A DNA stretch of 64,000 nucleotides from Perna viridis (taxonomy: Eukaryota). This document shows positions 39,812 through 42,800 of the stretch, in pieces. The translations under genes were made by a program, and so were the position numbers. The first letter of the stretch is position 1. Each line of letters begins with the position of its first letter. The notes beneath the pieces are model-generated. The model had not been told where the DNA came from and made no database searches. It saw only the letters and a program-made list of their open reading frames with translations. The stretch covers positions 28,960,862 to 29,024,861 of the forward strand of contig CM074511.1 in NCBI GenBank assembly GCA_037379345.1, written 5' to 3'.

Positions 39812-42800
39812 TTAGTATCTCACTATCGCCTTTCCTATGTTACCACCGCTGAACAATTGTCTGAATGCAGTATACATGTTAACGAGTCCATCTGCGATAG
39901 TTTCTCTGTATCTTATTTTACCCTAAAATATAACAGGAATGGATATGTTGAATAAGTCATAGAGACAATAACCCCGCCGGGATGAACAATGTCAGCTCAA
40001 GGTCACCAATGGGTCTTCAATGAACTACGAGAAAACCCTCACACCATAGGACGGGCTGCAACTGGCCCAAAACAACATTCTATTTAGGTACAGCGAAGTA
40101 GTTGCCCTTATTGACTACAGCAAAATAAAAGTAAACTGAAAGTGGAAAAAAAAAACGAAACAAAAACAAGAAATTCTTGACTTAGAATATATGAAGAATT
40201 TTCCATTGTTACAGTAACCGTTCCATAGGAAGAATCACATTCTTAGGCCGAAAAAATATGTGTGTTTACTGTAACTAGGGTCGGTAGGTCGGATTTTTTT
40301 TTTGGGGGGGGGAGAGTTCATGACAATTGTAGTTTCGATAAATACCGGTACCGGTGACAGAAAAGGCAGGAATTTCCGGAATTTTAGAAAATTGCTGATA
40401 AAAAAAGGTTAGGGTCGCGGCGATAAAATGAAGGTAGGTCGGGTGACAGTAAACACACATATTTTTTTTTGGCCTCACATAGTATTTCAAAAATGTAATC
40501 ATTTGAACCAATTCTCGACCACACGTACCCTAACCAATGAGATAATTTAAGATTCACGTTTTAAATTATACATTGATAAGTATGTGTAAACATACTAATT
40601 TTTCGGACTGATTCGTAATACCTAACAAACCACAAATGGCAAATAACAATCTTTGCTGGAGACAAATTACAAGAAAAACGCCTTGTTTATAATATCCCAA
40701 AATACTATGTTTATTACTAGGCTTTGCTGGCTAGATTTGTAGGTCAATTAAAGTAAAATAAAACATCTTAAATGATGCTGAGTCTGTAATCAAAACAAAC
40801 GAGCATTTATGATGATTTTTGTATTTAGATAATATTTCTACACTTTACCTTAAGCCTATGGTCACTGATTTAAGTTGAAGAAAATATCTTCTAGACCTAT
40901 ATTAGCATTGGTATATTGGTATATAATCAGGAGAATATCGATGGTGTCAATTTCAAAGAAACGGTTTCAAAGTAAGTACCTGTGACTAACGTACGAACAC
41001 ATTGTATAAACAATAAGTTTATTTTTAGGAATTATTCTCTGGGATTTTAGACTAGTCCACGATGACATCTTCATGTCATTCTCTACATTGGGGTAACTTC
41101 ACAGCAACGTAGCTGTAAAATACGTCAAATCGAACTTCTTTAATGTTACAAATCAATGTCGCTTTTCATGTTGTCAATTTTGAACACATCTAAACATGAA
41201 AGAACTGCCTTCTAACTGAATGTCAAAGTATATAAATCATTAATAGTCACAGGTATACGTACTAGTTATACATGTACATGCAATTACAATACGTAATAGG
41301 TTTACCTCTTTTATCCAAACTGCCATTTGTTTTTCTGCTTCTGGCCATTTTACAATGGTATGATATGATTGAAATCCTTGTACAAGTAAAGGCTTCATCA
41401 GTACCGTTTGAAAGGGAAATTCGGCTAAAAAGAAATTCATGTCTAAATTTAAATGTTTTAAAAAATCAAAAAAAGTAGTATTACATGTATTTGGCAATAT
41501 GGGTACGCGATGATTGTTCCCACATTATTACTGTAATCAGAGGCCGATCAAGGATTTCATTTTGTGGAATCCAAGGACTTCATACAACCATTTTTCCTCG
41601 TTATGGGGACTTGCGTCCAGAACGCATTTCCACAGATTCCCACCTGCTTCATACAAATTACACCAACTCAAAGTGACCTTACGTTGCACAAAAAGAACGA
41701 TAAGTAAAATTAATATTAAAATAACTAAAGAAGTATAAATGCAAACAAAGTATTAAAAATATATAATATTCTTACATTTTACCTATAAATGGTTCGCTGT
41801 TGTTATATTGAGAGATTGCTCCAATTATAGAAATACGTCCAAATGCGTTCATATGTTTCAGCACTGTATTTGCTGTTGGTCCCCCAACCTACAAAACACG
41901 TTTGTACAAACAATAATAATTAAACATGCATTTACATATGCAGTACTGCACTAAGAGTTATATATATGTACATGTGAGTAAATGGTAATTTTTATCAAAC
42001 AATGAACCAATTCAGAAATTAAACTCCCGTCCTCGTAAACAGCGTTGCGTCGTCGCAGCATCCTCGTAAAATACGTTTTGACTAATTACAATTACAATAT
42101 AAAAATAAGAAATTTGGCATAATGATTGCCAGTAATCCACCAAATACCAAGCAACGAAACAATTTAACTCAACAGATCACCACGAAGTCTTCAATGATGG
42201 GCAAACGCATGTCGTAAAACAAGCTGTAATTAAAGACCCAAAAATAAATTACGTGAAACTACACATGTATACATAAAAGGCGAAAATCGACTTAGTTTAT
42301 AGAAAACAAAAATATAAAACGAATAGCAATGAATATAAAAAAAACAAGAACAACCACTTAACTAAAAGTTTCCAGGCTTGGGACGGGCACATAAAATATG
42401 TGTCGGGGTTAAACGCGTTTGTGAGAACTCACCACCCCCTAACCTGGAACAATGTTGGGAAAATGTAACAATAAAACGAACTAAAGAAATCTGTCAATAA
42501 AGTAGGCTTTAAATAATTACATGTAGATATGAATTCAATATCTTCATTAATTAAAGCTATTATCCTCATCAGTAAAATATCAGTACACATGTATGTAAGC
42601 AGATACAGGAAAATGGCTTCTACTATAAGTTATGATGAGATTCATCTCCGTGGGCCAGCCGTACGTGAATAAATTCTACTGAATTTTTGTTTGAGCTAAT
42701 CTAAAAAGCTCAAGGTCCAAGACCACCAAGTATGGTACATAAACATATCGTTTACACACAGGGCGTATCTTGAAAGACAAAAAAACACACATAAACTGTA

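Follow-up and report, generated by a model that had tools for sequence, protein, structure and literature searches.

A decayed type-P5 twister ribozyme at the 3' end of a Naiad Penelope-like element, with two palindromes in place of P1 that may pair RNA copies

A short segment of the minus strand of the window (the whole 64,000-nt stretch of Perna viridis contig CM074511.1 that was analysed) carries the pieces of a twister ribozyme in permuted order, with a perfect palindrome directly before the predicted cleavage site, in the place of the P1 stem. This raises the questions of what kind of element carries the motif, and what a palindrome does in the position of a ribozyme helix. The answer favoured here, with a probability of about 0.78, is that the motif is a decayed type-P5 twister in the 3' untranslated region (UTR) of a Naiad Penelope-like retroelement, that its intact relatives probably cleave their own RNA at the U|A dinucleotide, and that the palindromes, of which there are two, likely pair two RNAs. 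The elements named in the first-pass annotation, which was made from the letters alone, could all be recovered by direct reading at their minus-strand positions, and together with the family alignment the following features could be distinguished.

42098..42515, minus strand: 3' end (3' UTR / pseudo-LTR region) of a Naiad-type Penelope-like element, 5'-truncated, ~420 bp, ORF-less
42354..42457, minus strand: type-P5 twister ribozyme, decayed, outer P5 stem included (family alignment; pair counts in intact relatives)
42442..42457, minus strand: P5, 5' strand, with copy-specific changes that lead to a competing TTCCAGG/CCTGGAA helix
42432..42439, minus strand: P2 3' strand (GGG) and general-base/pseudoknot strand, GGGGGUGG at 42439-42432; GAGGG in the family
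42422..42431, minus strand: palindrome 1, TGAGTTCTCA in the window copy, TGAGCGCTCA in the family
42411..42420, minus strand: palindrome 2, AAACGCGTTT in the window copy (perfect), AAACATGTTT in the family
42410..42411, minus strand: predicted cleavage site U|A (twister consensus; the equivalent site of the relative L135 shows a strand-specific coverage step)
42402..42408, minus strand: P2 5' strand CCC (42408-42406) and pseudoknot strand (42404-42402), GCC in the family, GAC and broken here
42389..42401, minus strand: P3 hairpin, ACAUA 42401-42397 / UAUGU 42393-42389 (sequence, fold)
42372..42388, minus strand: P4 and loop UCCCAAGC (42383-42376), CCCG 42387-42384 / CUGG 42375-42372
42354..42369, minus strand: P5, 3' strand, decayed (family alignment)

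A twister core in a dispersed repeat family

Family copies cover positions 42130-42498 of the window in blastn, and extension of the alignment places the common 3' end of the element at ~42098 and its 5' edge at ~42497-42517. The ribozyme lies where the first-pass annotation had placed it, but the limits given there (42365..42448) were too narrow, as it reaches ~42354-42457 through the outer P5 stem. UAA is read directly at 42411-42409, the final U of palindrome 2 is the base directly 5' of the predicted cut, and A42410 would be the general acid by analogy with the twister consensus (PMC11662667). In the window copy the A of GAGGG is gone (replaced by U, with ~2 nt missing from the general-base strand at 42432-42439), as are the C of GCC, one P4 pair (a single C-U mismatch, at a position that is U-A in 11/12 aligned rows) and much of P5, and both pseudoknots are damaged. 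As twisters are reported in PMC11662667 not to tolerate paired defects among the pseudoknots and the general base, this copy is probably inactive, as had been supposed from the outset, and the competing TTCCAGG/CCTGGAA helix noted at that stage is present in the predicted minimum free energy fold. The window copy is a fossil of a living family. Taken in isolation it is unexceptional, with a folding z-score of -1.2 to -1.8, no twister match at E<=10 in the Rfam scan of the window, and 0.87 occurrences of the twister 10-mer core expected in shuffles when one mismatch is allowed. That the motif goes beyond chance follows from its family-wide recurrence.

A search of the source genome (723 Mb) with a 221-nt query identified the window motif as one copy of a dispersed repeat with 241 candidate places. 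All 40 of the candidate places that were scored matched, the 39 besides the window copy at 75-82% identity (E 3e-38 to 2e-25). The pattern GAGGGTT-N16-19-TTTAACCC has 464 exact matches in this genome versus 8 for the reversed control, while two further exact core patterns have 356 and 50 matches versus 0 in the control, and at least three two-palindrome twister families are present. The exact 35-place pattern of the window family has no copies in the source genome, owing to the age of this family. The copies share a common 3' end ~310 nt past the cut and have ragged 5' ends, which show no peak at the cut (4/100 within 5 nt, of which one is an internal duplication). Outside animals, inspection by eye of three viral pattern matches and 26 from prokaryotes revealed none of the double-palindrome form.

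The majority sequence of 30 aligned copies reads P5 5' strand, GGG, GAGGG, a 22-nt insert, U|AA, CCC, C, GCC, P3, P4 with the loop UCCCAAGC, A and P5 3' strand. The full core in intact relatives bears out the twister identity and permuted (P5) order first proposed for the window copy, and the GAGGG/UCCC pseudoknot, on which that proposal had been made to depend, is present in the family consensus. The detailed pairing scheme was presumed to be that of the rice twister. The core was aligned in twelve hand-chosen rows, in which each family was represented by one or two intact copies, alongside two decayed copies and the window copy; L140, L167 and L113, from the same families, and L163 and L209, which are decayed with imperfect palindromes, were left out. 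Counted over 26 pairs, with both pseudoknots among them, pairing is found in 92.9% of cells versus at most 45% when the partners are slid, a figure that is not independent proof, as the search patterns had fixed part of the core. The core is conserved rather than covarying: the cut-site UAA is invariant in 12/12 rows, as is CCC, GAGGG occurs in 9/12 (altered in L144, L132 and the window copy), P2 and P4 are paired in 88.9% and 97.9% of cells, with UCCCAAG(C/U) as the P4 loop, and the pseudoknots GGG/CCC and GC/G(C/U) are paired in 94.4% and 91.7%, respectively, with one G-C/G-U change. P3 covaries between families (column 43/59 is AU in seven rows and GC in four). The P1 stem is absent, and its place is taken by an insert of 22-23 nt consisting of two palindromes.

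The twister class, type P5 included, was reportedly set out by Roth et al. in 2014. When thirteen loci were compared with the Rfam twister-P5 model (RF02684; P1 model RF03160) none scored above the cut-off (best 23.9 versus 37.6 bits), and the scan of the source genome with RF02684 gave no match, with control genomes silent too. On account of the absent P1 stem and the score below the cut-off, the motif was filed as a twister variant. It shares with the type-P5 twister (RF02684, clan CL00120) the strand order, P2, P3, P4, open P5, pseudoknots, U|AA and GAGGG, and differs in the two-palindrome insert where a P1 hairpin would stand and in its Rfam score; the two-palindrome P1 explains why hundreds of copies per genome are missed by Rfam. 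The same core segments occur in P1 order in L126 (Rfam twister-P1 E 1.4e-7, 47.1 bits, cut-off 67.2), where L126:1419-1482, on a 1.5 kb contig without a nearby reverse transcriptase (RT), is a type-P1 twister without P1 pairing and, judged by its sequence, an independent bridge to the twister class. Two other readings, one HDV-like and one based on a fold of the plus strand, were abandoned when the twister core emerged from the family on the minus strand. Element names follow PMC11662667.

Covarying palindromes in place of P1

The palindromes that replace P1 in intact relatives are 8-10 nt each. Five types of palindrome 1 (TGAGCGCTCA, TGAGATCTCA, TGGGATCCCA, TTGGATCCAA and GTGATCAC) and five of palindrome 2 (AAACATGTTT, AACCGGTT, AAACTAGTTT, AAAGTACTTT and, in the window copy only, AAACGCGTTT) could be distinguished, with TGAGCGCTCA the commonest form of palindrome 1 (8/50 ungapped copies). 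The replacement of P1 by a palindrome, which the first-pass annotation had recognised, is conserved, but only one palindrome had been counted, and the adjacent near-palindrome is the decayed second true palindrome. In every family palindrome 2 ends on the cut-site U and palindrome 1 begins 1 nt past GAGGG. The search patterns were open over the palindromes except for the outermost T bases, and palindromy is kept between families, so that the palindrome is maintained across variants as had been anticipated. Both-sided changes occur in 5/10 symmetry pairs, both innermost pairs included, and the covariation score of 0.403 is reached by 0/500 shuffles, the shuffle being blind to relatedness. Differences between families comprise 17 both-sided cells, 10 unpaired cells and two one-sided wobbles. 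The innermost pairs are adjacent bases, varying as AU, UA, CG and GC, and since these covary though unable to pair in a hairpin, pairing between two strands is indicated. The listed palindromes have self-duplex energies of -8 to -18 kcal/mol, versus 0 to -0.8 kcal/mol for the hairpin.

Folding of monomers, with pseudoknots ignored, gives an inactive slipped register at a probability of at least 0.8 in 4/6 relatives. In this register GGGUU lies on AACCC, so that the cut site and one of the pseudoknot strands are hidden, and the active-like fold is 2-12 kcal/mol above it. Predicted dimers lie 5-14 kcal/mol below two monomers and are mostly strand-swapped via palindrome 1, without a shuffled control, and a 5-bp inactive register remains in the cofolded dimers of L135, L128 and L137, where folding was without pseudoknots and Mg2+. 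In the proposed mechanism, a lone RNA copy would misfold, pairing GGGUU with AACCC and masking its cut site. The palindromes probably form RNA-RNA duplexes between two element copies, of which a strand-swapped dimer through palindrome 1 would be the simplest predicted form. Simultaneous pairing of both palindromes would be crossing, and would probably need open or already cut RNA; as it would interlock two closed cores, the two palindromes may act in succession, or once the cut has been made. That pairing between copies is needed for cleavage, or strongly helps it, has slightly less than an even chance. Somewhat more tentative is the suggestion that the twister of this widespread Naiad subclade is a dimer gated by two palindromes, self-inhibited when alone, active as a same-family pair and cutting in living animals. 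The two-palindrome P1 would then be a natural, family-specific pairing switch on a much-studied ribozyme.

A strand-specific coverage step in a relative

Evidence on cleavage comes from RNA reads of the species holding the L135 element, a relative and not the window copy. After a coarse asymmetry, depth was read in 8-nt bins, with one boundary set on the predicted cut U229|A228 of L135. In three of the four RNA runs, X21, X22 and X23, which belong to one study, the first-mate-plus depth across 228|229 falls from 583 to 433, 725 to 582 and 657 to 475 (-26, -20 and -28%), and depth on the other strand goes from 721 to 708, 910 to 885 and 748 to 744 (-2, -3 and -0.5%), counted in RNA reads alone and without a raw DNA baseline, the X15 DNA contigs being unusable as a depth control. 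This boundary has the largest strand difference among 29 bin boundaries in each of the three. The first-mate-plus depth falls further past the cut and recovers partly within ~30 nt. In X24, which comes from a different study, the step is absent (437 to 412, rank 8 of 29), and a second, broader step is found on the opposite strand at L135 ~301-316 in X21-X23. The library orientation is assumed, in that the usual stranded protocol puts the first-mate-plus column on the ribozyme strand, and its sole support is the greater depth of the plus column over the distal RT ORF. No cluster of loose ends was seen at the L135 cut, which makes the ends look like true molecule ends and not junctions of truncated copies, and the pile-up table has no site there. 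Cutting during extraction may be the source of the ends. Self-cleavage is probably the cause of the coverage step in L135.

The step also bears on the alternative that the twister cuts as a monomer without P1, with the palindromes selected for packaging, template switching or the pairing of freed 3' ends, a reading that is a serious one even if it stands at rather less than an even chance. P1 is reported to have had no impact on cleavage when natural twisters were tested on a large scale (PMC11662667), so that a monomer may cut; L126, the P1-order twister, likewise lacks P1 pairing; the 20-28% step occurs in RNA mostly from dispersed single copies; and simultaneous pairing of both palindromes would be easy topologically once the RNA is cut but hard until then. 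However, both palindromes abut active-site segments in every family, which ties them to the active site, a misfolded monomer is predicted in 4/6 relatives, and dimer-dependent hammerheads provide a precedent in Penelope-like elements (PMC6765202).

It is improbable that the palindromes act at the DNA level, through template-switch correction of quasi-palindromes or as a protein site, with the coverage step an artefact of the library or of a mixture of copies. The symmetric double change from CATG to CGCG in palindrome 2 of the window copy, which may be an older subfamily state or chance, would fit such an origin, as would the lack of a step in X24 and the other step on the opposite strand. Decay in 102 genomic copies, however, comprises 152 one-sided, eight symmetric and 14 broken double changes, and symmetric changes thus make up only 8/174 changed pairs in genomic copies, yet they predominate between families; as decay is one-sided, the symmetry is kept in the spreading lineages and not by DNA mutational bias. 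Furthermore, the palindromes are not conserved in sequence, whereas a protein site would need conservation, and an artefact caused by a palindrome, which is identical on both strands, should be mirrored at ~238|239 on the other strand, where none was seen.

The Naiad host element

In longer copies a decayed ORF ending YDKRDDF...YGVYISQL...HPxFYG lies upstream of the motif. DKA, a Naiad marker according to PMC8557442, is found upstream in L121 (window family) and in L122 and L123 (second family), with GPKY in L122. An RT lies upstream of the motif in 7/21 metagenome loci, and L135 has an open RT frame of 381 aa. CxC, GPKY and DKA occur in full-length homologues whose DNA context is absent (CxC in P0006, P0010 and P0012), and a Pfam GIY-YIG domain is N-terminal of the RT in the homologues P0108 and P0034. 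By sequence, the twister-bearing elements are a Naiad subclade with a C-terminal HPxFYG extension. Among the copies examined none that bears the twister reaches an intact endonuclease, nor is any of them full-length with two ribozymes. The source genome yielded no full-length twister-bearing element, and its matches, which have 37-42% identity and in many cases a long open frame, seem to belong to the other, young Naiad family. No viral-contig relative was found in the search with P0010. SECIS-like matches between the ORF stop and the ribozyme in L135:469-533 (32.3 bits) and L128:1018-1082 (minus strand; 30.9 bits), below the cut-off of 35, are weakly consistent with selenoprotein Naiads. P0006 and P0010 have read-through tails terminating in SGKVGIP and SGKVERS, which could be encoded by the G-rich strand with palindrome 1 of types GGGATCCC and GAGCGCTC behind it; this hints, at codon level only, that distant subclade members carry the motif.

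The first-pass annotation had assigned the motif to non-coding twister retrozymes in tandem arrays, which is very unlikely, for although most copies, the window copy included, are ORF-less, a young 2.1 kb non-coding element bears the motif (16 near-identical copies examined) and L035 and L172 hold local micro-arrays of part of it, the longer copies run into the Naiad RT, the copies vary at their 5' ends while agreeing at the 3' end, the young element carries the motif once, has fixed ends and an unrelated array of 160 bp and shows a G-G in one of the pseudoknots, no recurring back-joint (circular RNA) was found in 1730 nt, a stretch shorter than the whole unit, and the absence of a head-to-tail array of whole units from 155 loci (~3-7 kb each) argues that this is not a retrozyme. 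The look-up of tandem and pseudo-LTR structures in these 155 loci gave partial repeats only, in L120 and L178.

Several of these loci are observations in their own right. The young 2.1 kb element (L147-L162), with its fixed ends and 160-bp tandem array, contains one ribozyme region (TTGGATCCAA, AAACTAGTTT), probably a captured passenger; that it is an active Naiad was ruled out by the fixed ends and by the lack of an ORF >200 aa within the shared element. The micro-arrays, ~65 nt x 11 up to the cut site in L035 and ~43 nt x 7 from near it onwards in L172, probably arose by slippage on short internal repeats. A different repeat, with the twister 3' half only behind unrelated sequence, occurs in L198, L200 and L204.

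By analogy with the job ascribed to hammerheads elsewhere in Penelope-like elements, it is fairly likely that the twister cuts tandem or read-through Naiad transcripts to unit length. Minimal dimer-dependent hammerheads are known from Penelope-like pseudo-LTRs (Cervera and de la Pena 2014 and Lunse et al. 2017, as cited in PMC6765202). They too sit in a terminal region of Penelope-like elements, and they too have a helix reduced to a palindrome that is thought to pair copies, but they belong to another ribozyme class, have one palindrome versus two and reside in non-Naiad hosts, and the dimer dependence here would be by inference. Should the dimer-gated reading be true, it would be a twister counterpart of the dimeric hammerheads, independently reached, and would partly answer the apparent lack of a ribozyme in Naiads. 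Craig et al. 2021 (PMC8557442), the main text of which never mentions twister, describe Naiads without a canonical hammerhead, and from this lack in very abundant elements propose that Penelope-like elements may carry ribozymes as passengers they can do without. A ribozyme of another class in the same place, covarying and apparently cutting, argues instead that the cut itself is important, with one ribozyme class able to stand in for another. The present elements share with the Naiads of that study DKA and GPKY, a C-terminal RT, heavy 5' truncation and weak SECIS matches in relatives, and differ in that a HPxFYG-tailed subclade bears a twister. Rfam found no hammerhead in 13 loci, with minimal hammerheads possibly below detection. 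No paper linking twisters with Naiads was found, the supplement of PMC11662667 (which focuses on type P1 and may list bivalve twisters) and the P5 alignments of Roth et al. 2014 being outside the scope of the search.

The T-variant twisters of Perere-3 in Schistosoma mansoni (PMC8501958) are similar in having an unusual P1 in a twister variant of a non-LTR retroelement, where they lie at the 5' end of an unrelated element with P1 formed partly from the target site; unlike these, the Naiad twister lies ~310 nt from the 3' end and has the P5 order. Non-LTR retrozymes (PMC7229834; bioRxiv 10.64898/2026.07.22.740005) are likewise ribozyme-bearing, mostly non-coding, Penelope-related repeats, but are described there as tandem arrays with a type I hammerhead per unit, whereas the window family consists of dispersed truncated ends of a coding element.

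The Chlamys-1_cAtm consensus (supplement of PMC8557442) starts near the expected cut, and its first 45 nt contain a twister-like 3' part, CACUGCC ... GUCCCAAGCCAG; twisters may thus extend to the sister Chlamys clade. The window also contains seven pieces of a younger, more abundant Naiad family without a twister, with an RT at 25731-27036. Its 3' UTR carries a different motif, in which an 11-bp outer stem encloses the palindrome TTTCTAGAAA, found at 27073-27177 (plus strand) and at 51277-51381, 55505-55609 and 10671-10775 (all minus strand) as well as in L081 and L084-L086, with no Rfam match in L081 and L084. Elsewhere in the window, Toll-like receptor genes lie at 18255-20864 and 31954-34461 (both plus strand), with leucine-rich repeats and a TIR domain in one 869-aa frame and the second paralogue apparently broken, and a fragment of a MULE transposase lies at 1515-2357 (minus strand).
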